IMG/VR virus record: IMGVR_UViG_2870490042_000003
DNA from: a virus
Taxonomy: Duplodnaviria > Heunggongvirae > Uroviricota > Caudoviricetes
Reading direction: 5' to 3' (one strand)
DNA length: 42,699 nucleotides
The position numbers and the translations under genes are program-made. Below the pieces are notes generated by a model. The model did no database searches, had not been told where the DNA came from, and saw only the letters and a list, made by a program, of their open reading frames with translations. Below are positions 1,082-41,281 of the stretch, piece by piece (position 1 is the first letter of the stretch; each line of letters begins with the position of its first letter).

Positions 1082-1408
1082 ATGACTAAAAATACTCGTT
1101 TTTCCCCCGAAGTCCGTCAACGGGCAGTCCGTATGGTTCTGGAAAGTCAGAGCGAATATGACTCACAATGGGCGACAATTTGTTCCATTGCTCCAAAGAT
1201 TGGCTGTACGCCGGAGACTCTGCGTGTCTGGGTTCGCCAGCATGAGCGGGATACCGGGGGCGGTGATGGAGGGCTCACCACCGCTGAACGTCAGCGTCTG
1301 AAAGAGCTGGAACGTGAAAATCGTGAACTGCGCCGCAGTAACGATATCCTTCGCCAGGCTTCCGCTTATTTTGCGAAGGCGGAGTTCGACCGCCTCTGGA
1401 AAAAATGA
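1082..1408 (+). CDS. IS629 transposase OrfA
   Basis: ATG at 1082 preceded by GAGAAAGAGG; 108 aa; ends in an A6 run (1400-1405, TGGAAAAAATGATG), the likely -1 frameshift site giving OrfAB. Confidence 0.85.
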
Positions 1409-2295
1409 TGCCACTGCTGGATAAGCTGCGTGAGCAGTACGGGGTCGGACCGCTATGCAGCGAACTGCATATTGCCCCGTCAACGTATTACCACTGTCAG
1501 CAACAGCGACATCATCCGGATAAACGCAGTGCCCGTGCGCAGCGCGATGACTGGCTGAAGAAAGAGATACAGCGCGTATACGATGAAAATCACAAGGTAT
1601 ACGGTGTGCGTAAAGTCTGGCGTCAGTTGTTACGGGAAGGTATCAGAGTGGCCAGATGCACTGTGGCACGTCTCATGGCGGTTATGGGACTTGCCGGTGT
1701 TCTCCGGGGTAAAAAGGTCCGTACGACCATCAGCCGGAAAGCCGTTGCCGCAGGCGACCGCGTAAACCGTCAGTTCGTGGCAGAACGACCTGACCAGCTG
1801 TGGGTGGCTGATTTTACTTACGTCAGCACATGGCGGGGCTTCGTCTATGTGGCGTTCATCATTGATGTGTTTGCCGGATACATCGTGGGGTGGCGGGTCT
1901 CATCGTCCATGGAAACGACATTCGTGCTGGATGCACTGGAGCAGGCGTTATGGGCCCGTCGACCGTCCGGCACGGTCCATCACAGTGATAAAGGTTCTCA
2001 GTATGTATCGCTGGCCTACACACAGCGGCTTAAGGAAGCCGGATTACTGGCATCAACAGGAAGTACAGGCGACTCGTATGACAACGCGATGGCGGAGAGC
2101 ATCAATGGTCTTTACAAAGCGGAGGTAATACACCGTAAGAGCTGGAAAAACCGTGCAGAAGTGGAACTGGCCACACTCACGTGGGTGGACTGGTATAACA
2201 ATCGACGATTGCTGGAAAGGCTGGGCCATACTCCTCCGGCAGAAGCAGAAAAAGCTTATTATGCTTCCATCGGAAACGATGATCTGGCAGCCTGA
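1405..2295 (+). CDS. IS629 transposase OrfB (DDE integrase-type catalytic domain)
   Basis: 296-aa ORF in -1 frame relative to orfA; IS3-family transposase-like sequence. Confidence 0.85.
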
Positions 2296-2297
2296 GT

Positions 2298-5200
2298 TCA
2301 CAGATAAAACACTCTCCAGGAAACCCGGGGCGGTTCAGTAAGGTTTTGCCCGTCTGTTGTTTTTTGCGCATAAAACAGATACGCAGCAGACGTTCCAACC
2401 TCAAAAACGTTTTGTCGAGTACTGGAACCCCACACCCTGATACTAACTGGTAGTTCTGAATTACCTGAATTAAGTAAAGCAAAACGATTGCCAGTCCCTG
2501 TTTGTTTTCTAATTACTAAATCGGCAGTTGAGTTAACCTCATCTTTGTTGATGGTTAGCGCCTGCGCTGTAGCACCGTTAACAGTGCCACTTAGTAGTTG
2601 AACCGCTCCATCATCGCCATTTAACAGCACTTGAGCGCTGCTTCTGTGGTTTTTCAGGAACAACATTTTGCCTGTGCTTTCTGATGTGCCTACCGACCAC
2701 GCCGAATTGGTTCCAGTGCTATCAACACCGCGCACAGCACAATTCATACTACTGTAATCTGACGTACTCCCCAGCACATCAACACGCCCGCCGCCTAATT
2801 TTGATGGAGTCGTCGAGGTTAACGACCTGACGGTTACATCCTGATTCCATCCTGAAACAACTACCTGACTCCACTCCGTCCAGTTTCCATTGACAACAAA
2901 GCGAACGTATATGCGTTTTGTGTCGCTGCCAATCAGCGTTTGCATGATCGCATAATCTGAACCCGTAGTTTTACGAGTAGATTCTACACGTAGCAAAAAG
3001 TTACCGCTTACGCCGTCAGGCTTATTGGTAATATATGCACCACCTGCAACAGTTTTGCATTGATAGTATTTAACAGATCCAGCCACTGTATTAGCAATGA
3101 TCAAGTCGTTTAAATCAATAGTCTTGTTGTCAATGGTTTCCGGCTCGATAGATCCCGCCATACCTGCGTTAAATGTGGCAAAGTCAGAAAAGGTTGTTTT
3201 ACCGCCTACCGTCACCCCGCTATCGAGTTTTGCTTGTGTGATTACTTTGCTGTTTTTTGTGTGGTCAGAATAACTACCAAAATACAAATCACCGTCACCA
3301 GCTATACCCAGGTATTTTTGATCAACATCATCAACCTTAAACCCAATGGACAAGTTTTTAATTGTGTTGTTGCTCGTTAAAACCAAAGGCGTATGCTGAG
3401 ATCCTTTGATGCTTACCGTAGTGTTATCGGAACTGGTGCTTGTGTTTGCAAATTCTGCGGTGGCTGCGCTGATTTTGTAAGTTATTTTTAGATTGCGGGC
3501 CTCAACCCTCCCGTCGTGGCGAACAATAAAATCACCACTTGATTCACCTTTTGTGTTTTTCGCCCTGATGTGGATTTCGCCAAGTGATTCGTTGTTTTCA
3601 GGCGACCAAACAACGCCGCGCTCGCTTCCGTCGTTGTTCATGAACCACAGATGAGCGGTTCCTTTTGCTGATTTTAGCCTGATAGATGGCGTTTCTTTCA
3701 ATATATCAAGATCACCAGACATAACATCGCCGGATTTTTTCACCTGCGCATCGTTAGTTACGTTGCCAAGTCCAACATCCGATTTCGACGGCTTGTTTGC
3801 CGAGCCGTATAGCTCATTGATGCTAAAAGTCCCGTTGTTAAGCCGGGCATCGTTGCCGGCATAGATCTTAATCTTCGCGGTTGAGTAGTCGATATTGATC
3901 GCTGACCACGTATCGCCGCACCGCGAGAATATACCAGAACCGTGGCTATAAATGGTCGCCGTGCTTCCGGTCGGCTTATCACCGCGCCAGAAATGACCAC
4001 CTTTGTCACGCAGAGCTTTTAAGATCTCTACATCGCTCATCTTGCCGTTTGTTGATATCCCGCTACCGCCAAGACCGAAAGCGCCTGTAAGCATAGCATT
4101 AGAAAGACCCAAATCTGCTTTAGTCGGCTTGTTTAACTGGTCGTAAATCCTTACAACGGGGCTTTCAACATATCCAGAAGGCGCGGCGGTTTGCTTAACA
4201 AATCCGTCTGGAATGTATAATTCCGGGCGTGCCGTCTGCGCCAGCACCGCAACCTTTGCGCCGTTGATAAATGCGCGCTGGAAGGCCCAAACCTCAATAA
4301 AGCCGTCACCTTTAACCAGGCCGTAACGCATCTGGTTGTTATCGGTCAGCCCGGTTGACCCTAAGCGGCGTATACTCAGATGACGAGAAACATTATCCGC
4401 ACTAAGCAAAGAAGGCAGACCGCGCGCCGAGATCTCGATAAAGTCAATGTTTCCGTAAGGGGAGCCGTAGTTACCGGCATTAGTAACCATTAGCGTTACA
4501 TGGCAATTGCCGCTTCCGGGATCGGAAAGTTTCGCGATCTTTATGTAAAAAGACTCATTACCAGTAACAACGGGCCAATCGTATTGCGTCATCGGGCTGA
4601 CGAGTCCCCCGACCTTGTCGAGATATTCTTTCGCCTTGTTCTCTGACGCTTTAGCGTTGGTTTCGCTGACCTTTGCTGCTGCCTCACTATTTTTCGCGTT
4701 GGTTTCTGATTTTTTGGCTGCTGTCGCGGAGTTTGCCGATGCAGTTTGTGAGTCTGCTGCCGCCTGTGCGCTGTTATCCGCATTCGTCTCAGACGTTTTT
4801 GCGGCCTTCGCGGAATTTCCTGCTGCCGTTGCCGAGGAAGCTGCACTGCCGGCGCTCGAGGCAGCGCTCGTTTCTGATGATTTTGCCGCCACTTTTGAAG
4901 CCGACGCATCCCGGGCTGAGGTGGCAGCTTCTGACGCTTTCGTGGTCGCGGTGGATGCAGATGTGGCCGCAGATTTTTGTGATGCTGCGGCATTCATTTC
5001 CGACGTTTTCGCTGCACCGGCACTGGTGGCTGCCGCGCTTTTTGAAGACTCTGCGGCGGCAGCACTTTTTGATGCTTCAGTGGCCTTTGTTGATGCCGTT
5101 CCTGCGCTGGAAGACGCTGACTGAGCCGACGACGCGGCCTGTCCGGCTGACGTGCTGGCTGCACGTGCTGAGCCTGCAGCATCAGTCGCACGGGTTGCCG

Positions 5201-5621
5201 CCTCACGGGCTGATGTGCTGGCATCGCTGGCTGACTTCTTCGCGGCTGCCGTGTTCTGTGCCACCGCGGACGCGTTACGCGCCACCTCTTCCACCATCAG
5301 TTCAAAACGGCGCAGTGCCTCAGGACGGGCATCATCCTCCGTCATGGCACCGAGAAAATCATTCAGCGTACCGGGTCGGGAATCTTCATACACGGTGATG
5401 GTCCCGGCATGTGACGGCGGGAATCCTTCCACCAACAGAATAACGCTGTACTGACCGTACTCAACGTCCATGCTGTAACGCCCGGCTTCATCCGGATTTT
5501 CTGAGGCCAGCGTGTTCACCACCACCGTGGTACTGTTACGTTTTGCTTTCAGCTGGATTGTGCAGTTCTGTACCGGTTTTCCTGTGCCGTCTTTCAGTAC
5601 ACCTGAAATCTTTACTGCCAT
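2298..5621 (-). CDS. stf: Side tail fibre protein (lambda Stf-like N-terminus, Ala/Ser-rich central repeats); 3' end interrupted by IS629, last 13 codons and stop are IS-derived
   Basis: ATG at 5621 (the track's M1 is GTG at 5627); N-terminus MAVKISGVLKDGTGKPVQNCTIQLKA matches lambda Stf from memory; the ORF runs 40 bp into the IS629 right end. Confidence 0.8.
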   Translation of the reverse strand: MAVKISGVLKDGTGKPVQNCTIQLKAKRNSTTVVVNTLASENPDEAGRYSMDVEYGQYSVILLVEGFPPSHAGTITVYEDSRPGTLNDFLGAMTEDDARPEALRRFELMVEEVARNASAVAQNTAAAKKSASDASTSAREAATRATDAAGSARAASTSAGQAASSAQSASSSAGTASTKATEASKSAAAAESSKSAAATSAGAAKTSEMNAAASQKSAATSASTATTKASEAATSARDASASKVAAKSSETSAASSAGSAASSATAAGNSAKAAKTSETNADNSAQAAADSQTASANSATAAKKSETNAKNSEAAAKVSETNAKASENKAKEYLDKVGGLVSPMTQYDWPVVTGNESFYIKIAKLSDPGSGNCHVTLMVTNAGNYGSPYGNIDFIEISARGLPSLLSADNVSRHLSIRRLGSTGLTDNNQMRYGLVKGDGFIEVWAFQRAFINGAKVAVLAQTARPELYIPDGFVKQTAAPSGYVESPVVRIYDQLNKPTKADLGLSNAMLTGAFGLGGSGISTNGKMSDVEILKALRDKGGHFWRGDKPTGSTATIYSHGSGIFSRCGDTWSAINIDYSTAKIKIYAGNDARLNNGTFSINELYGSANKPSKSDVGLGNVTNDAQVKKSGDVMSGDLDILKETPSIRLKSAKGTAHLWFMNNDGSERGVVWSPENNESLGEIHIRAKNTKGESSGDFIVRHDGRVEARNLKITYKISAATAEFANTSTSSDNTTVSIKGSQHTPLVLTSNNTIKNLSIGFKVDDVDQKYLGIAGDGDLYFGSYSDHTKNSKVITQAKLDSGVTVGGKTTFSDFATFNAGMAGSIEPETIDNKTIDLNDLIIANTVAGSVKYYQCKTVAGGAYITNKPDGVSGNFLLRVESTRKTTGSDYAIMQTLIGSDTKRIYVRFVVNGNWTEWSQVVVSGWNQDVTVRSLTSTTPSKLGGGRVDVLGSTSDYSSMNCAVRGVDSTGTNSAWSVGTSESTGKMLFLKNHRSSAQVLLNGDDGAVQLLSGTVNGATAQALTINKDEVNSTADLVIRKQTGTGNRFALLNSGNSELPVSIRVWGSSTRQNVFEVGTSAAYLFYAQKTTDGQNLTEPPRVSWRVFYL

Positions 5622-5630
5622 ATTCACCCC

Positions 5631-5659
5631 ACAAAAAAGCCCGCCTGAACCGGCGGGCT
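5631..5659 (-). terminator. Intrinsic terminator-like hairpin between lom and stf
   Basis: On the - strand AGCCCGCC-GGTTCA-GGCGGGCT followed by TTTTTT, then the stf SD and start. Confidence 0.5.
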
Positions 5660-5685
5660 GTCATAACACTGTGTTACCTGGCTAA

Positions 5686-6285
5686 TCAGAATTTATAACC
5701 GACACCCACGATGAAACCGTCAGTGCGCCAGTCGCCACTGCCGGAACCTTCATAAGCGACATCAACGGCCACGGATTCGGTCGGGTTAAACTGCACGCCA
5801 GCCCCCCACGCCAGAGACGTGTTGCTGTGGCGACCGTCATCACTTCCGGTCAGCACGTCGTGCGTTTTCCCCTTGTTGTCAGTTACGCGGAGATAATCCC
5901 CGGAGAAAGTCGACACACGGCTGTAAGCCATACCCGCCATCGCATACGCGCTGAACCATTCATTCACGCGCACAGACGGCCCCGCCATCACGCTGAACCA
6001 GCGGTTACGCACGGAATCTTCATGCCAGCGGGTATCGCTGTAATGCGTTTTTTGCTCATCTTTGGCATTGGCATAACTGAATGACGTCACCAGCCCCAGC
6101 GTGTCCGTAAATTCATAACGGTATTTCACGTTAATCCCGTTCAGATTATCGCTGCCGGGGACGTTCGTACGGGCATGAAGATACCCTGCGCTCAGTGTGG
6201 ACTGGTGTTCAGACGCCCATGCAGGCGTACCTGATACGGCCAGACAGATGGCTGCGGACAAAATAGCTGCATAAACTTTACGCAT
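5686..6285 (-). CDS. lom: Lom outer membrane protein (Ail/Lom family beta-barrel)
   Basis: 199 aa; N-terminal signal peptide; C-terminus ...YEGSGSGDWRTDGFIVGVGYKF as in lambda Lom. Confidence 0.85.
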   Translation of the reverse strand: MRKVYAAILSAAICLAVSGTPAWASEHQSTLSAGYLHARTNVPGSDNLNGINVKYRYEFTDTLGLVTSFSYANAKDEQKTHYSDTRWHEDSVRNRWFSVMAGPSVRVNEWFSAYAMAGMAYSRVSTFSGDYLRVTDNKGKTHDVLTGSDDGRHSNTSLAWGAGVQFNPTESVAVDVAYEGSGSGDWRTDGFIVGVGYKF

Positions 6286-27381: not shown

Positions 27382-27641
27382 GGTTCTTTCCACCATCTGA
27401 AAAATAATTCTTTAAAATACCAGACATGTAACACAGAAAAAACACAAAACCATACCTTAAATAGAAACCTGATCATCAAGCAGATATGCATGGATAAACT
27501 ACAAGACGAGATATAAACCACCCTGCATTTAAATAAACAATAAACAACATCAGAAAAATAATTCTGCTCTATGGTTTATATTCAAAAATATCATTTATAC
27601 TTTTCAGAACATCACCAGCAAGGCATAAACAAGGAAGCTAA

Positions 27642-27977: not shown

Positions 27978-28012
27978 GGAGTTTACTCACATCTGACAAA
28001 ATCAATATAAAC

Positions 28013-28216
28013 AGCCCCTCCGGAGAGGGGCTGGAGAGTGGCGCTATGTGCCATTGCATGGTGCCGGGTGCCTCCCGGTGAATTCAGTACCAGCACCTGA
28101 ATCCGCGATTATCCCATATACCTACTCGCTGATTACCCCTCCGCACAGGGGGATTCACCATGCGAAATTTTTTAACAAACTTCCCGCCGGCCAGACAATA
28201 ATCGCCAGCCTGAATT
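28013..28216. repeat. Copy 1 of a diverged ~205-bp direct repeat beginning with GC-rich hairpin AGCCCCTCCGGAGAGGGGCT
   Basis: Shared blocks with copy 2: AGCCCCTCCGGAGAGGGGCTG, CATGGTGCC..GCCTCCCGGT.AATTCAG, GGGGGATTCACCATGCGA, TTTTTAACAAA, GCCAGACAAT.ATC. Confidence 0.7.
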
Positions 28217-28475
28217 ATGAGCAACGTGGCATTTTACGGGAAAACTGTTTTCTGCAGTAAAAAGGCCCGCCGGAGCGAGCCTGGAAGGATAGCGGTCATG
28301 TGATGCCGGTTTCCCGGTAACTCAGCATCGGTATCTGAGTCAACGTTTTCTCTACTGGGTCATTTCCGATACGTTCCGCCTTCCGGCAGACTTTCATCAC
28401 GTCAGAAAATATAGCACCCTGAGTAACAGGACAGTACTCAGAATTCAGGAAACTGTGACACATCCTGCACAGAAA

Positions 28476-28685
28476 AGCCCCTCCGGAGAGGGGCTGAAGT
28501 ATAGCCTAATTTCTGTCTGTCGCATGGTGCCAGGGGCCTCCCGGTAAATTCAGCCTGTCTACTGAATTTGCATGTTCTCTGGATCATACACTTTGCCAGA
28601 TGCCCCGCCGCTGAGGGGGATTCACCATGCGATGTAATTTTTAACAAATTCTCCGGCAGCCAGACAATCATCAAGCTGTGGAATT
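28476..28685. repeat. Copy 2 of the diverged ~205-bp direct repeat
   Basis: Same conserved blocks as copy 1; the hairpin read on the - strand is followed by TTTTCTGTG. Confidence 0.7.
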
Positions 28686-29010: not shown

Positions 29011-29086
29011 TGGTGGCCCTTGCTGGATTTGAACCAGCGACCTGGCGATTATGAGTCGCTCGCTCTCACCACTGAGCTAAAGGGCC
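29011..29086 (-). tRNA. tRNA with CAU anticodon (tRNA-Ile2 ileX/ileZ-like, or Met), encoded CCA
   Basis: 76 nt folded by hand into a canonical cloverleaf: acceptor GGCCCTT/AAGGGCC, D-stem GCTC/GAGC, anticodon loop CT-CAT-AA, T-stem GCTGG/CCAGC, T-loop TTCAAAT, discriminator A, CCA. Confidence 0.85.
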
Positions 29087-31934: not shown

Positions 31935-32090
31935 TTACTCCTCAGGTTCGTAAGCTGTGAAGACAGCGACCTCCGTCTGGCCGGTTCGGATTCGTACCTC
32001 GCAGAGGTCTTTCCTCGTTACCAGTGCCGTCACAATGACGGTTAAACAGATGACGATCAGGGCGATTAACATCGCCTTTTGCTGCTTCAT
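31935..32090 (-). CDS. hok: Hok/Gef-family type I toxin (HokD/RelF-like)
   Basis: 51 aa MKQQKAMLIALIVICLTVIVTALVTRKDLCEVRIRTGQTEVAVFTAYEPEE; an in-frame upstream ATG at 32147 would give a 70-aa form. Confidence 0.85.
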   Translation of the reverse strand: MKQQKAMLIALIVICLTVIVTALVTRKDLCEVRIRTGQTEVAVFTAYEPEE

Positions 32091-32349
32091 AGCCTGCTTC
32101 TCCTTGCCTTTCGGCACGTAAGAGGCTAACCTAGATTTGCCGTTCATAGATTGAGCCTCAGATTAATGTTAAGCGTCTTGCAGGACGCGTAATGTTAACT
32201 GGGGCTTTTCTCTATCTGCCTTTTGGTGTTCATGCCTGAGACAGATAGCCTCAAGCACCCGCAGTCATTCTACTTAACTAAGATTTCCCCGCAAACCGTT
32301 TTTGTCCGGCACAGTAAATATCCAACTAAACCAATGGCGTTCGCTGTAT

Positions 32350-33457: not shown

Positions 33458-33814
33458 TTATTCAGTTCTGGATTTTGTCGCCCTGCGTATCCGCGCTTTC
33501 GCGTTACGCTCAATCTGAATTAGCTTTTCTATATTTTTTCGCCTTTCCCGCTCCTCCTGACGCAAGAGCCTTACATCATCTGCCAGTCTGGTTTCTCTTT
33601 TCGCCACAGAGAGCATCCAGTCAAATGGCTCCACAACTGCACCGCAGATTTTACAGCGGACCTGACGCTCTTTTTCGTCAACCCGGACAGAGGCGTGATG
33701 ACAATATGGTCTTTCCGATGGCTCATAAAGAAAATTAACCTGATTACGAGGGTCATCCTCTTTTACCGGAAATAAAACGATATTGCTTAACTCATCCTCT
33801 GGTTTTATTTCCAT
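33458..33814 (-). CDS. Hypothetical protein with a Cys-His zinc-finger-like motif
   Basis: Start ATG 33814 with GGAGAGGAG SD; …YCHHASVRVDEKERQVRCKICGAV…. Confidence 0.5.
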   Translation of the reverse strand: MEIKPEDELSNIVLFPVKEDDPRNQVNFLYEPSERPYCHHASVRVDEKERQVRCKICGAVVEPFDWMLSVAKRETRLADDVRLLRQEERERRKNIEKLIQIERNAKARIRRATKSRTE

Positions 33815-33871
33815 GCTCCTCTCCTTTGATGCGAATGCCAGCGGTAATTGAAGCCTGATAGCTAATTTCAC

Positions 33872-34294
33872 TCACAGTACCGCCTCCTGAAAATTACCCT
33901 GATAGAAAGCCAGTACACGCTGCATAGCTTCACTCTTCCGGCACTCGCGACAGATTATGTTTAGGCGACTGTCGTAGCGACGTATTTCTCCGTCAGGTAA
34001 CGACCAGATAAGGTCCGGATCAACCACAACCGGTTTCTTCAGCTTTGCCCTCGATAATTTTTTGCGGGCATTTTGCCAGTCTTTACGAGCCTGTTCAGAC
34101 GGGAATAACCCGTAGCCAGAATTGTATACATCGCCACTGGCAACCAGCTCTCTGGCCAGAACGCTCATCAGATATCTTGTTGCCCCAGTTTTAGCTTCCA
34201 GTTGTCGTAACGTCTCGCGCCCACTCTGGCGTACGAGTTCAAGAACCTGTCCTTTAATTTTTTCCCGCTCTTCTTGTGTAAAAACTTTTGCCAC
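33872..34294 (-). CDS. Hypothetical protein downstream of the replication gene
   Basis: 140 aa from GTG 34294 with AGGAGG SD; no family recognised. Confidence 0.5.
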   Translation of the reverse strand: MAKVFTQEEREKIKGQVLELVRQSGRETLRQLEAKTGATRYLMSVLARELVASGDVYNSGYGLFPSEQARKDWQNARKKLSRAKLKKPVVVDPDLIWSLPDGEIRRYDSRLNIICRECRKSEAMQRVLAFYQGNFQEAVL

Positions 34295-34334
34295 AAGCCC
34301 TCCTGAAAATTACCTCATGACCAGAAATTAACAC

Positions 34335-35405
34335 TTACCCCCTGAAGCCCGGCGGAATTTCGTTATCCGGTTCAGAAATATGATTCACACAACGCTGGTT
34401 GTTCGTGCCGCTTACCGGGAGCAGCCAGGGGTTTTCAAAATTCCGGTCCGGTCCAAAAAACGTCGTCGCTCGCTGAACAAATTCCGTTCCCGTTTTCCCG
34501 GTAGCCGCAAGGTATCTTGCGTAACGCCTCACGCCATCCAGCATGGCCTCTGGTGGCACCCCCTCGCGTAATCTGGCTTTCCAGGCACTGAAAGCGGATT
34601 TCTTCGGGTTTGCCCCGGCACGCAACGGGTATTCCCGCCAGACCTGTTCGAACACATCAGGATAATCCACTCGTCCCACAGGCTGCCCGGTGTTTTCCGG
34701 GACTACCCGATCGGCTTCCCGCTGAATGGCGGAATCGGCTTCAGGCTGCTGAAGTTGGTGTGATTGCTCCTGCCTTGCGGTCATCACCTGCTGCACAGCG
34801 CCCGAATCGGCTTTCAGCGCATACGCTGAATCGGCTTCCGGTGTCGTGCCTGCGGGCTGGCCAGGAGTGACGGTCTGAACATCCCCTGCCTGGTTCGTGG
34901 CGTTTTTTACGCCATGGACCATAGTGTTTTGATCTTCTTGATCTGTATCTTTATCTGTATCTTTATCTGTCGTGACTCGTCGTGACATGTGCGTGACATT
35001 TCGTGACTCGCCGTGACAATCGCCATTTTGTTCCCGCTTTCTTTCCCTCTCTCGCTGCGCCCTCTTGCGCTCTGCCGGAGATTTTGCGGTTTGCGAAATA
35101 TTGCCGTTGTCCTCTTTCAGCACCTGGCGTTTTTCCCATCCAGTGATTAAATCACCATCAAGTACCCGCCCCTGCATCGTCTGCAAAATTGAATCAATTA
35201 CCTCTTCTGTCACGTCGAGCGCACTTGCCAAATCTTCTGTCGTGACATCAATGTGACCTCGCGTGACATTTCGTGACGCGCTCACCAGGAGGTGGATATA
35301 CACTGCCATCACTGTTGCAATTGGCTGCCCTGACACCCTGGCAATTGTTCGCCACTTAGGGTCATTTGGCATGTCATGCCATAATCTGAGCCAGGCGTTA
35401 GCCAT
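34335..35405 (-). CDS. Replication initiation protein (O-like) with internal origin iterons
   Basis: Start ATG 35405 (GAGGTG SD); the central coding region contains phased CGTGAC repeats and AT-rich tandem repeats; located at the O position downstream of the Cro/CII-like genes. Confidence 0.6.
   Translation of the reverse strand: MANAWLRLWHDMPNDPKWRTIARVSGQPIATVMAVYIHLLVSASRNVTRGHIDVTTEDLASALDVTEEVIDSILQTMQGRVLDGDLITGWEKRQVLKEDNGNISQTAKSPAERKRAQRERERKREQNGDCHGESRNVTHMSRRVTTDKDTDKDTDQEDQNTMVHGVKNATNQAGDVQTVTPGQPAGTTPEADSAYALKADSGAVQQVMTARQEQSHQLQQPEADSAIQREADRVVPENTGQPVGRVDYPDVFEQVWREYPLRAGANPKKSAFSAWKARLREGVPPEAMLDGVRRYARYLAATGKTGTEFVQRATTFFGPDRNFENPWLLPVSGTNNQRCVNHISEPDNEIPPGFRG
34939..35016. 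repeat. Candidate origin: three tandem 12-bp AT-rich repeats (TCTGTATCTTTA) then five CGTGAC iterons at ~10-11 bp spacing
   Basis: Direct repeats seen in the sequence inside the O-like gene; a second CGTGAC cluster lies at 35241-35277. Confidence 0.55.
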
Positions 35406-37801: not shown

Positions 37802-38208
37802 TAGATAACCAACGAAGCTAAGGTTGGTAATTAAGGAGTTCTCCACGGGTGAGGTGGAGTGCGTGCGCCGGACACGGGTGAGCATCCGGCACTGACAGTT
37901 TACTGAAAGGATATTTCCCTGAAAAGTCAGACCATAACGCGAAAGCGCACGGCGAGGTAGCTGGTTCATAGATAGCCTGTCGTTAAATTTTCGTCGACCG
38001 TGCGCTTCCGGTTGTGGCAATCCGCGAAATGGCGCGGCGGTAAGTATGGCGGGGTTATTCCTTCCCCCGTTGAGGACACCGGGTTGTCAGGTTGACCATA
38101 CGCTTAAGTGACAACCCCACTGCAACGCCCTCTGTTATCAATTTTCTGGTGACGTTTGGCGGTATCAGTTTTACTCCGTGACTGCTCTGCCGCCCTTTTT
38201 AAAGTGAA

Positions 38209-38839: not shown

Positions 38840-41281
38840 ATGAGCACTGATAAAGAAGAATTTGCACTATATTGCGAAGCAAAAAATGACAAAGTAAGAA
38901 AACGCCTAGGAATTAAAGGTGGTTTTTACTGGACTACAGCAAAAAAATTATCTGTTGCAATCTCCCGCTGCATTACCGCAATGGATGACAACGATTATGA
39001 TGAAGACGACTTTAAAAAACCCGTCCGCGTCAATTTGCCCGTTGTTGACGACCTTCCGCCAGAAGGCGTGTTTGATACTGAATTCTGCAACCGCTATGAA
39101 AAAGGCGGGAAAGATGGCATCACAATGACATTTATCGGCCCTTCCCCCTCTGTTCAGGACAAACCAGCCAGCACTGACAATACCAACATCAACGGCGAAG
39201 CCATGACTGAGATTGAGGAGAGCATGCTTCTGCCTGTCTCCGGTCAGGAACTGCCCATTCGTTGGCTTGCTCAACACGGCAGCGAAAAACCAGTAACGCA
39301 CGTTTCACGCGACGAACTCCAGGCATTACACATTGCACGGGCTGAAGAACTACCGGCTGTTACTGCCCTGGCTATTTCGCATAAAACCAGTCTGCTCGAC
39401 TCGCTGGAGATTCGCGACCTCCACAAACTGGTTCGTGACACTGACAAAGTTTTCCCTAATCCTGGTAATTCAGACCTGGGACTAATAACTGCTTTTTTCG
39501 AAGCATACCTAGACGCTGACTACACTGATCGGGGTCTGCTGACAAAAGAGTGGATGAAAGGAAATCGTGTTTCACGCATCACCCGCACGGCTTCCGGTGC
39601 TAATGCTGGCGGTGGGAACAAAACCGATCGCAATCCGAATTTAGTACACACCCTCGACACACTGGATGTGGAGATTGCAGCAGCCACACTTCCGATGGAT
39701 TTTAATATTTATGAAATTCCGGGCAGCGTTTATCGTCGCGCAAAAGAAGTAGTCCTGAACAAAGAAAGTCCGTTCAAAGAATGGTCCGCAGCACTTCGTG
39801 CAACCCCGGGTATTCTGGACTATTCCCGCGCCGCTATTTTTGCACTTATCCGAAGCGCACACCCTGAATTTTATCACTACCCGGGACGCCTTCAGGGGTA
39901 TATCAACGCCTATTTGACGGAAACTGATCACGAGAACCCCAGCAAGGAAACTCTCACAGCTGCCCGGCATACGCCGGAAAAAGATATCCTGGAAGAAATT
40001 AACCGCGAGGTGGTTACTGAGCGTGAAACAGAAGAAGAAAAACCACAACCATCTGACGCAATGGCAGGTGAACAGGCAACAACTGAAACAATGGAACCGG
40101 ATACAACTGAACATGGCCAGAACGCGCAGTCGCTGGATGCTCAGTCGCAGGTGAGTTCCGCTAACCAAGTAAAAGTCACCGCTGACGAAGTAAACAAAAT
40201 TATGCAGGCAGCCAATATCAGCCAGCCTGACGCCGATAAGTTACTTGCTGTATCGCGTGGTGAATTTGTTGAGGGGATTAGCGACCCTAATGATCCGAAA
40301 TGGGTCAAAGGGATCCAGACTCGCGATTCTGTGAACCAGAACCAGCATGAATCGGAACGGAACGACCAAAAAGCGGAACAAAACAGCCCAAATGCGTTAC
40401 AAAACGAGCCAGAAACGAAACAATCCGAACCAGTGGCGCAACAGGAAGTGGAAAAAGTCTGCACCGCCTGCGGTCAGACCGGCGGCGGCAACTGCCCTGA
40501 TTGTGGCGCGGTGATGGGCGACGCAACATACCAGGAAACATTCGATGAAGAGTATCAGGTTGAAGTTCAGGAAGATGATCCGGAGGAAATGGAAGGCGCT
40601 GAACATCCACACAAGGAGAACACTGGCGGCAATCAGCATCACGATAGCGATAATGAAACTGGCGAGACGGCAGATCACTCAATTAAGGTGAACGGTCATC
40701 AAGAAATCACATCCACCAGCAGGACGTGTGACCATCTAATGATCGACCTTGAAACCATGGGAAAAAATCCTGATGCCCCGATCATCTCAATAGGTGCAAT
40801 ATTTTTCGATCCGCAAACCGGAGATATGGGACCGGAATTTAGTAAGACTATCGATCTGGAAACTGCTGGCGGAGTCATTGATCGGGACACCATTAAATGG
40901 TGGCTTAAGCAATCACGCGAAGCGCAATCTGCCATTATGACCGATGAAATCCCGTTAGATGATGCACTGTTACAATTGCGGGAATTTATCGACGAAAACT
41001 CCGGTGAATTTTTTGTTCAGGTCTGGGGAAATGGAGCCAACTTCGACAACACGATTTTGCGCCGTTCATACGAACGGCAGGGGATCCCCTGCCCGTGGCG
41101 TTACTACAACGATCGCGATGTACGCACAATCGTTGAGCTGGGGAAAGCCATAGACTTCGATGCCAGAACGGCTATTCCATTCGAAGGTGAGCGCCATAAT
41201 GCACTTGATGACGCCCGTTACCAGGCAAAATACGTTTCAGTTATCTGGCAAAAACTGATCCCGAGTCAGGCTGATTTTTAA
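38840..41281 (+). CDS. RecE-like N-terminal/central region fused to a C-terminal DEDDh (DnaQ-like) 3'-5' exonuclease domain
   Basis: 813 aa; N-terminal two-thirds (…[30 protein letters not shown]…[19 protein letters not shown]…) resembles Rac RecE as I recall it; the C-terminal ~190 aa carry DEDDh-type motifs ([28 protein letters not shown]). Confidence 0.65.

Follow-up and report, generated by a model that had tools for sequence, protein, structure and literature searches.

In phage lambda, the replication origin lies in the DNA that encodes the interdomain linker of the initiator protein O, and a palindrome lies beyond its AT-rich tract. This origin, ori-lambda, occupies positions 39034–39160 within the O gene and consists of four 18-bp iterons and a 38-bp AT-rich sequence (PMC3349717). 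In phage SPP1, oriL is located within gene 38 and combines direct repeats with an AT-rich unwinding element (PMC6316719). Also of interest here is DopC (Brezellec et al. 2017), a domesticated protein in which an O-like N-terminus is joined to the C-terminal motif of DnaT, and at whose locus no iterons were found (PMC5509034). The gene described below lies in the tailed-phage record IMGVR_UViG_2870490042_000003, a stretch of 42,699 nucleotides that was analysed whole and is referred to as the window. It encodes a replication initiator and holds, in its own coding sequence, two phased arrays of a short repeat, an AT-rich tract and an inverted repeat. With a probability of roughly three in four, comparison with its relatives points to a prophage replication origin within the gene of its own initiator, because the repeats are independent of the reading frame, their synonymous sites are conserved, the iteron core switches jointly in both arrays, the codons of the AT-rich tract are biased, and the elements are located in the DNA for a predicted disordered linker. 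The first-pass annotation, made from the letters of the window, had read this gene as an "O-like" initiator gene that carries its own origin (phased iterons plus an AT-rich element) and resembles lambda ori in O. The role and the layout stood up, with strong support from the comparative evidence for an origin whose activity is inferred, while the homology to O gave way to membership of the "phage replisome organizer" group.

Repeats conserved as DNA in most members of the initiator family

The hexamer CGTGAC (GTCACG on the gene strand) occurs 24 times on the two strands of the window as against 19.4 ± 4.4 times in shuffled sequences, so that there is no overall enrichment. Nine of these 24 sites fall within the 307 bp of 34971–35277, against an expectation of 0.11 (Poisson P = 5e-15, or about 2e-10 once every start position is corrected for), and CGTGAC is the sole hexamer to reach five copies per 60 bp anywhere in the window. 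The other local hexamer cluster, ATAAAC in four copies within about 60 bp (27491–27545), is in AT-rich intergenic DNA, and none otherwise comparable was seen. The sites in the gene form two direct-repeat arrays and a lone inverted copy (Table 1). In the linker array CGTGAC starts at 34971, 34981, 34992, 35002 and 35012; these five helically spaced repeats had been noticed at 34970–35016, and their true coordinates are one base further on. In the N-terminal array, which had also been picked out at first reading as a second cluster, exact copies start at 35241, 35262 and 35272 with TGTGAC, one mismatch away, at 35252, so that the spacing is 11/10/10 bp, or 10/10/11 when read on the gene strand; the inverted copy is an addition to that first description. 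The core is thus repeated once per helical turn in two arrays that are themselves around 250 bp, or about 24 helical turns, apart in the gene. The linker array is proposed to hold the origin-core binding sites of the initiator and the N-terminal array, which has no AT-rich tract adjoining it, to hold auxiliary ones. A scan of the initiator gene for DnaA boxes (TTWTNCACA) found none.

Table 1. Coordinates of the initiator gene, the elements and protein regions within it and the two genes that follow. Positions are those of the window; aa, amino acids; nt, nucleotides; AF2, AlphaFold2; pLDDT, predicted local distance difference test.
Feature	Position	Strand	Details
Replication initiator gene, "phage replisome organizer"	34335..35405	-	356 aa; ATG at 35405; stop codon 34335-34337
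N-terminal domain coding region	35115..35405	-	aa 1-97; five helices and a beta wing; AF2 pLDDT 71-93
N-terminal iteron array (proposed auxiliary sites)	35241..35277	-	GTCACG at 35272, 35262 and 35241 and variant GTCACA at 35252 (+ strand starts)
Lone inverted iteron core	35209..35214	+	Gene nt 192; many homologues have an inverted copy at nt ~192
Disordered linker coding region	34674..35027	-	aa 127-244; AF2 pLDDT ~32; holds linker iterons, AT-rich tract, hairpin and EADS repeats
Linker iteron array (proposed origin-core sites)	34971..35017	-	Five direct GTCACG cores (gene strand); spacing 10/11/10/10 bp
AT-rich, purine/pyrimidine-skewed tract (proposed unwinding element)	34927..34970	.	Three 12-bp repeats GATAAAGATACA (gene strand, 34936-34970); GATC at 34931 and 34940
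Inverted repeat	34891..34921	.	13-nt arms, 5-nt loop; beyond the AT-rich tract, on the side away from the iterons
C-terminal helical domain coding region	34416..34673	-	aa 245-330; AF2 pLDDT 74-94 over most; distantly like the C-terminal domain of DnaT
DnaT-like C-terminal tail coding region	34338..34412	-	aa 332-356, ...VNHISEPDNEIPPGFRG; low-confidence in AF2
Downstream 140-aa gene, DUF977/Ren-like	33872..34294	-	PF06163 E 2.9e-29; phrog_142 "Ren-like exclusion protein"
Zinc-ribbon protein, 137 aa, function unassigned	33458-33871		Pfam/PHROGs

A question raised already by the first-pass annotation was whether the repeats simply reflect repeated codons, and several lines of evidence speak to it. 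The cores of the linker array sit in reading frames 1, 2, 0, 2 and 0, and GTCACG on the gene strand accordingly occupies all three frames and is translated as CH, SR or VT. Codon alignments were made with the homologues of the loci L006 and L007, which have 52–62% amino acid identity and the same core as the window; against these two, identity at third codon positions is 0.8–1.0 over both arrays and the AT-rich tract and 0.13–0.7 elsewhere. Against the homologues of L003 and L005, which have a different core, third-position identity peaks at 0.82–0.91 over the AT-rich tract and the next 40 or so nucleotides (the hairpin), where amino acid identity is just 0.5–0.7.

The same picture extends to distant relatives. 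A scan for the N-terminal domain, with one genome taken per species, yielded 51 loci, and the comparison set, with the window and four further homologues, came to 49 genes. The hosts belong to the gamma-, beta- and alpha-proteobacteria and include Enterobacterales, Pseudomonas, Bordetella, Acidovorax, Chromobacterium, sphingomonads and others. One core is present in at least four copies in 42 of the 49 genes, namely GTCACG in 26, GAACGC in ten and GTAACG in six. In those 42 the arrays are always at about nucleotides 129–160 and 380–430 of the gene, and the two arrays of any one gene always share one core. Over the family, 160 of 239 distances between adjacent iterons are 10 or 11 bp, and in most members the second array gives way, after its last iteron, to a (GATAAA/GATACA)n tract. 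The occurrence of the cores in three frames, the conservation of synonymous sites and the joint switching of the core show that the repeats are DNA elements conserved independently of the encoded protein in most family members, and the case in which they are merely repeated codons was not borne out.

The N-terminal array has a further property, in that it encodes amino acids 43–55, which in the AlphaFold2 (AF2) model cover the end of helix 3 together with a loop of the N-terminal domain that is modelled with lower confidence. Homologues carry insertions at this place, and an R-G-(H/R) loop is kept there in all three iteron classes. The loop and the DNA sites that it perhaps recognises are thus encoded by the same bases (35241–35277). 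When residues of the domain that co-vary with iteron type were sought, clear covariation was seen only in this loop, and the test is uninformative because the covarying loop is encoded by the iterons themselves. Among the loci L010–L058, the N-terminal domain and the two arrays are fused to many unrelated C-terminal regions across the Proteobacteria, with a DnaC-like gene within about 2 kb downstream in a minority, and domain and arrays together look like a portable cassette of an origin and an origin-binding domain.

The AT-rich tract, the hairpin and the candidate origin

The linker array is abutted by a tandem repeat that Tandem Repeats Finder places at 34936–34970 (period 12, 2.9 copies, 95% matches). 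These are the three 12-bp AT-rich repeats recognised at first reading, whose range of 34939–34974 had overrun four nucleotides into the first iteron. No other 40-mer of the gene is as rich in AT (75%) or as unstable (-43.4 kcal/mol versus -57.4 ± 3.9) as 34927–34966, which falls in the top 0.25% of the window, and the tract is proposed to be the DNA-unwinding element of the candidate origin. Along the direction of transcription the order is iterons, AT-rich tract and palindrome. In the family as a whole the tract has a mean AT content of 0.66 versus 0.46 gene-wide and 0.72 purines on the coding strand, and its codon usage is strikingly different from that of the rest of the same genes. Aspartate is encoded by GAT or GAC in a ratio of 126:9 in the tract versus 386:435 elsewhere (P 3e-27), lysine by AAA or AAG at 110:20 versus 303:304 (P 6e-14), and arginine by AGR or CGN at 30:15 versus 223:827 (P 2e-10). 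GATC sites are found in or next to the tract in seven of ten enteric loci versus two of 28 others (Fisher P = 3e-4, for loci that are phylogenetically non-independent), which hints at an involvement of Dam and SeqA at the candidate origin in Dam-positive hosts, as at oriC.

Folded as single-stranded DNA, the inverted repeat beyond the tract has z-scores of -4.5 (+ strand) and -3.9 (- strand), and values of -4.4 to -5.8 are reached by the matching hairpins of L003, L006 and L007. A change of frame in L007, where the hairpin DNA encodes PGSSQKIPMNQ (LVHGEKIASEP in the window), leaves a stem of 10 bp perfectly paired. Strong inverted repeats are found at this position in 24% of the family loci as compared to 4–5% in controls, so the hairpin is frequent but not universal in the family. 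One could also see in the hairpin and the T-rich strand next to it not a structural component of an origin but an intrinsic terminator for antisense transcripts (+ strand) or a signal for single-strand initiation. On the + strand the 13-pair stem is followed by TAGTGTTTTG and scores as terminator-like, and the stem is stronger on that strand than on the other (-10.9 versus -8.7 kcal/mol). However, the T-run begins several bases past the stem, no promoter-like site of the + strand was found upstream within 33800–34890, and a scan against Rfam gave no match in this region or to any RNA family within the initiator gene. A terminator or initiation signal at this place is therefore rather unlikely, and as it concerns one sub-element it would be compatible with the presence of an origin.

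A more general objection is that all of these repeats are by-products of a low-complexity protein linker, made of repeated codons and peptides, with no function in cis. The whole segment does encode a disordered linker, and the 12-bp AT-rich repeats are in frame and encode DKDT, with one frame shared by 132 of the 149 occurrences of AGATA[AC] in the family. A by-product of this kind would nonetheless have to account for a GTCACG core that is spread over three frames and specifies differing peptides, for synonymous positions that are the most conserved ones, for codons in the AT-rich tract that depart extremely from the usage elsewhere in the same genes, those of GC-rich hosts included, for the preservation of the hairpin DNA in L007 in spite of its different frame, and for an iteron core that changes in both arrays jointly. 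It is hard to credit on this evidence, and an origin within the gene is far better in keeping with it.

Two arrays about 250 bp apart, with an inverted copy, inside the transcription unit of the initiator itself might instead be sites at which the initiator controls its own expression or copy number (by roadblock, titration or handcuffing), with the true start of replication elsewhere in the phage. Such arrays recall the control iterons of P1- and F-type plasmids, and the N-terminal array does lack an adjoining AT-rich tract. The linker array, however, is joined to an AT-rich and strand-skewed tract, the stretch of lowest stability in the gene, no comparable hexamer cluster was found elsewhere in the window save the four copies of ATAAAC, and iterons next to an unwinding element are the classic layout, as in ori-lambda (PMC3349717) and SPP1 oriL (PMC6316719). 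Purely regulatory arrays are thus improbable, and a regulatory role of the N-terminal array would be compatible with the reading of the gene as an origin and no replacement for it.

The initiator protein, its DnaT-like C-terminus and the helicase loader

The initiator gene is intact, with GAGGTG ahead of its ATG, and all homologues begin with MAN(A/S)WLRLWHDMPNDPKW. Its product matches phrog_3729, "replication initiation protein" (E 7e-257), and its cluster at 99% identity, which has 5786 member sequences, is named "phage replisome organizer" at NCBI. The gene recurs unchanged in phages vB_EcoS-640R1 and 813R8 and with 98.5% identity in Evi and Tritos. Of 5426 complete E. coli genomes, 2698 contain a match to it, which spans at least 80% of its length in 1646 of them; a search of a plasmid collection returned large records only, several of them chromosome-sized and all typed as non-mobilizable. 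Against Pfam there was no match at E <= 0.01, with PF04492 (lambda O) and PF13730 (HTH_36) absent from the lists at E <= 1, and these two are also absent among the 25 Pfam families shown for 33 relatives. A match below threshold is that to PF09681, Phage_rep_org_N (E 0.12; 12.8 bits versus a cut-off of 23.3), in which amino acids 5–122 span profile positions 1–118 of 121; weak matches to PF09681 also occur in five of the 33 relatives. The surroundings are those of a lambdoid early-right operon, in the order CI-like repressor, Cro/DicC-like, YdaT/CII-like, initiator, DUF977 and small open reading frames (ORFs), and then hok/sok, DUF968, RusA and Q.

The AF2 model, built on 33 homologues, has a confident domain at either end (Table 1). 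A basic helix (amino acids 110–126) lies between the N-terminal domain and the disordered stretch, whose length varies among homologues, and the linker array, AT-rich tract and hairpin together encode amino acids 130–172, between the two confidently modelled domains. The N-terminal domain is presumed to bind the iterons; a Foldseek search of the model against the PDB returned only winged-helix regulators, none of them significant (E > 0.9), and is suggestive, though not usable as evidence. The linker also contains four copies of GAATCGGCTTC (+ strand), at 34710–34745 and 34806–34841, which encode (P)EADS repeats. The EAD motif recurs in diverged homologues and the GAATCGGCTTC DNA repeat in phage 75/02 Stx, and the repeats are candidates either for an acidic motif at the protein level (cf. 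the PriB-binding acidic linker of DnaT) or for a DNA element.

The other end of the protein is of interest because of its likeness to DnaT. Fifteen of 25 residues (60%) of the tail are identical to residues 155–179 of E. coli DnaT (BLASTP, E 1e-7), the tail pattern ...SEPDxxIPPGFRG is present, and the tail matches the DnaT chains 6aep, 2ru8 and 9zbt_D in the PDB and, weakly, NCBIfam NF002770. When the C-terminal domain and tail were aligned with DnaT 107–179 by hhalign, the probability was 92–93% (E 4e-7 to 6e-7). The homologue in L007 has 34% identity to DnaT 106–179 (tblastn, E 1e-5), and other organizers with the same N-terminal domain contain the Pfam DnaT domain PF17948 (E 1.4e-17). A profile search of the PDB with the homologue alignment found the DnaT tail alone, and weakly, the profile being diluted by three full-length proteins in the alignment. 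Outside its C-terminus the initiator has no similarity to DnaT, whose N-terminal oligomerisation domain it lacks. Structures of the preprimosome published in 2026 have the C-terminal domain of DnaT docking on PriA and forming a filament on lagging-strand single-stranded DNA, and leave the recruitment of DnaB–DnaC unresolved (PMC13377028). A search of the literature for "DnaT-like" phage proteins found no direct description of one, and the fusion of an O-like with a DnaT-type part has a precedent in DopC.

No helicase loader of the P or DnaC type had been evident downstream at first reading, and this absence was confirmed by Pfam, PHROGs, tblastn and the annotations of related phages. Four DnaC-like proteins gave no tblastn match in the window (E > 1), the annotation of 19 kb around the initiator in phage 813R8 has no other replication gene, and in that of the complete phage Tritos the initiator is the only replication function listed. 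Several relatives do have a loader. In L003, L005 and L006 (the two genes at about 4001–5736 of the locus) and in Shigella phage 75/02 Stx, a DnaC-like gene of 241–249 amino acids comes immediately after the organizer, starting within a few bases of its stop codon, and L001 also has a DnaC-like gene immediately downstream. The homologue encoded in L003 shares 49% identity with the DnaC of E. coli. The Salmonella homologue L007, on the other hand, has a small helix-turn-helix-type gene next to it instead of a DnaC-like one. The loader is thus an optional companion of the initiator, carried by L003, L005, L006 and 75/02 Stx and by neither L007 nor the window, whose phage presumably uses the DnaC of its host.

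Two neighbours were considered as a missing loader, the 140-aa DUF977 protein and the 137-aa zinc-ribbon ORF, and both were rejected, as neither has a loader or ATPase signature. The first-pass annotation had offered the 140-aa protein as a possible partner of the initiator, with the recruitment of host factors as the other option. Homology search identifies that protein as DUF977/Ren-like, and in phage 75/02 Stx the gene for a "Ren-like exclusion protein" sits downstream of the DnaC-like loader gene, which argues against the 140-aa protein as a substitute loader. Recruitment of host factors is the better option, given a DnaT-like C-terminus and a DnaC homologue that relatives have and this phage lacks. 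In the host E. coli K-12, dnaC directly follows dnaT, mirroring the phage pair of organizer and DnaC, and this suggests that the phage pair and the host dnaT–dnaC share a common origin. At a further locus, L046, the C-terminus of the organizer is 45% identical to DnaT 85–177 and the next gene is DnaC-like (57% identity, best tblastn match).

These observations can be assembled into a mechanism. The winged-helix-like N-terminal domain would occupy the phased iterons along a single face of the double helix, and the resulting nucleoprotein complex would then open the adjacent AT-rich tract. The DnaT-like C-terminal domain and tail might engage the exposed single strand, host primosome proteins or both, after which host DnaC would load DnaB, the phage bringing no loader of its own. 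The N-terminal array, with its inverted copy, probably strengthens or regulates the complex, for instance by looping. A more specific idea, possible but with the odds somewhat against it, is that the organizer is an "origin-specific DnaT" in which an iteron-binding domain replaces the targeting that depends on PriA and PriB, while the C-terminal domain and tail coat the AT-rich tract and hand it over to host DnaC–DnaB. If this were true, a phage could dispense with any loader; the organizer–DnaC pair and the host dnaT–dnaC operon would represent a single module in two forms, suggesting that dnaT came from a phage by domestication, as dnaC did; and the conserved DnaT tail would be a candidate contact to the DnaC/DnaB (or PriA) machinery.

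A number of points weigh against an origin that works in this way. A literature search for the origin of this family and for iterons in replisome organizers found no experimental origin assay or description. The AT-rich repeats are mostly in one frame (GAT in frame in the 132 of 149 cases mentioned above), which leaves room for a role of the D-K/D-T peptide at the protein level, and at the N-terminal array the constraints on protein and DNA are confounded because the array encodes the conserved R-G-H/R loop. The helix at the usual recognition position of the N-terminal domain is acidic, and iteron binding by this domain is inferred. As for DnaT, the likeness beyond the tail comes from hhalign (about 92%), the Pfam domain PF17948 was not detected in this initiator, and no role is given to the DnaT tail in the 2026 preprimosome paper (PMC13377028).

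Other features of the window and comparison with known systems

Several other features were seen elsewhere in the window. The small RNA STnc100 occurs in two tandem copies between the Q-like antiterminator region and the lysis genes (28003–28191 and 28467–28660, - strand; Rfam), as does a tRNA (29014–29086, - strand) that is tRNA-Met in the annotation of phage 813R8. A hok/sok-type toxin–antitoxin at 31935–32260 (- strand) comprises sok (Rfam) and a 70-aa Hok-like ORF. Rfam also places the small RNA DicF in the early-left region (38144–38195, + strand) and an ALIL frameshift pseudoknot, of an IS3-family element, near the start of the window (1363–1479, + strand).

The layout of the initiator gene provides a rule by which origins might be located in many prophages, namely a (GATAAA)n tract preceded by a pair of phased arrays whose core is GT(C/A)ACG or GAACGC. 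The family would also offer a natural series of specificity switches in which to follow the co-evolution of initiator and iterons, and a lambdoid replicon that lacks a loader could help to show how domains of the DnaT type recruit DnaB–DnaC.

Comparison with ori-lambda reveals both likeness and difference. As in lambda, the initiator gene that contains the candidate origin belongs to the pR operon and comes after the cro and cII analogues, and a direct-repeat array of at least four copies is followed by an AT-rich tract on the promoter-distal side. As in lambda too, the DNA concerned encodes an interdomain linker, which is disordered in the AF2 prediction. The initiator itself, however, has no detectable homology to O. 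Its iterons have a 6-bp non-palindromic core with a period of 10–11 bp, unlike the dyad-symmetric iterons of 18–19 bp in lambda; a second array lies inside the coding region for the N-terminal domain; there is no P loader; and the C-terminus is DnaT-like rather than P-binding.

With gp38 and oriL of SPP1 the locus would share the principle that the gene of an origin-binding protein contains its own origin. SPP1 has a loader (gp39) and a helicase (gp40) of its own, whereas the phage of the window brings neither. According to the description of TIGR01714 (Phage_rep_org_N), the low-complexity middle of such replisome organizers reflects direct repeats in the DNA that are able to act as an origin. 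The low-complexity middle region of the present initiator mirrors DNA direct repeats in the same way, but the initiator differs from the organizers of Gram-positive phages in its proteobacterial hosts, its different C-terminal domain and a PF09681 match that stays below threshold. Compared to E. coli DnaT, the likeness extends over the C-terminal 25 residues, over the preceding helices, which align to DnaT 107–153 (hhalign 92%), and over an acidic or disordered linker ahead of the C-terminal domain; the N-terminal oligomerisation domain of DnaT is replaced by a predicted sequence-specific DNA-binding domain. Among closer relatives, L003, L005 and L006 have the same N-terminal domain, layout of two arrays, C-terminal domain and tail and differ by the DnaC homologue next door, while the organizer of Shigella phage 75/02 Stx has the C-terminal half only in common (64% amino acid identity) and a different N-terminal half.

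An origin of repeats and an AT-rich tract inside the gene of its own initiator is therefore a classical layout, as known from lambda and SPP1, of which this member is experimentally uncharacterised. What is particular here is the combination of short cores placed one per helical turn, a conserved second array, lineage-specific switches of the core, a DnaT-like C-terminus and no loader.

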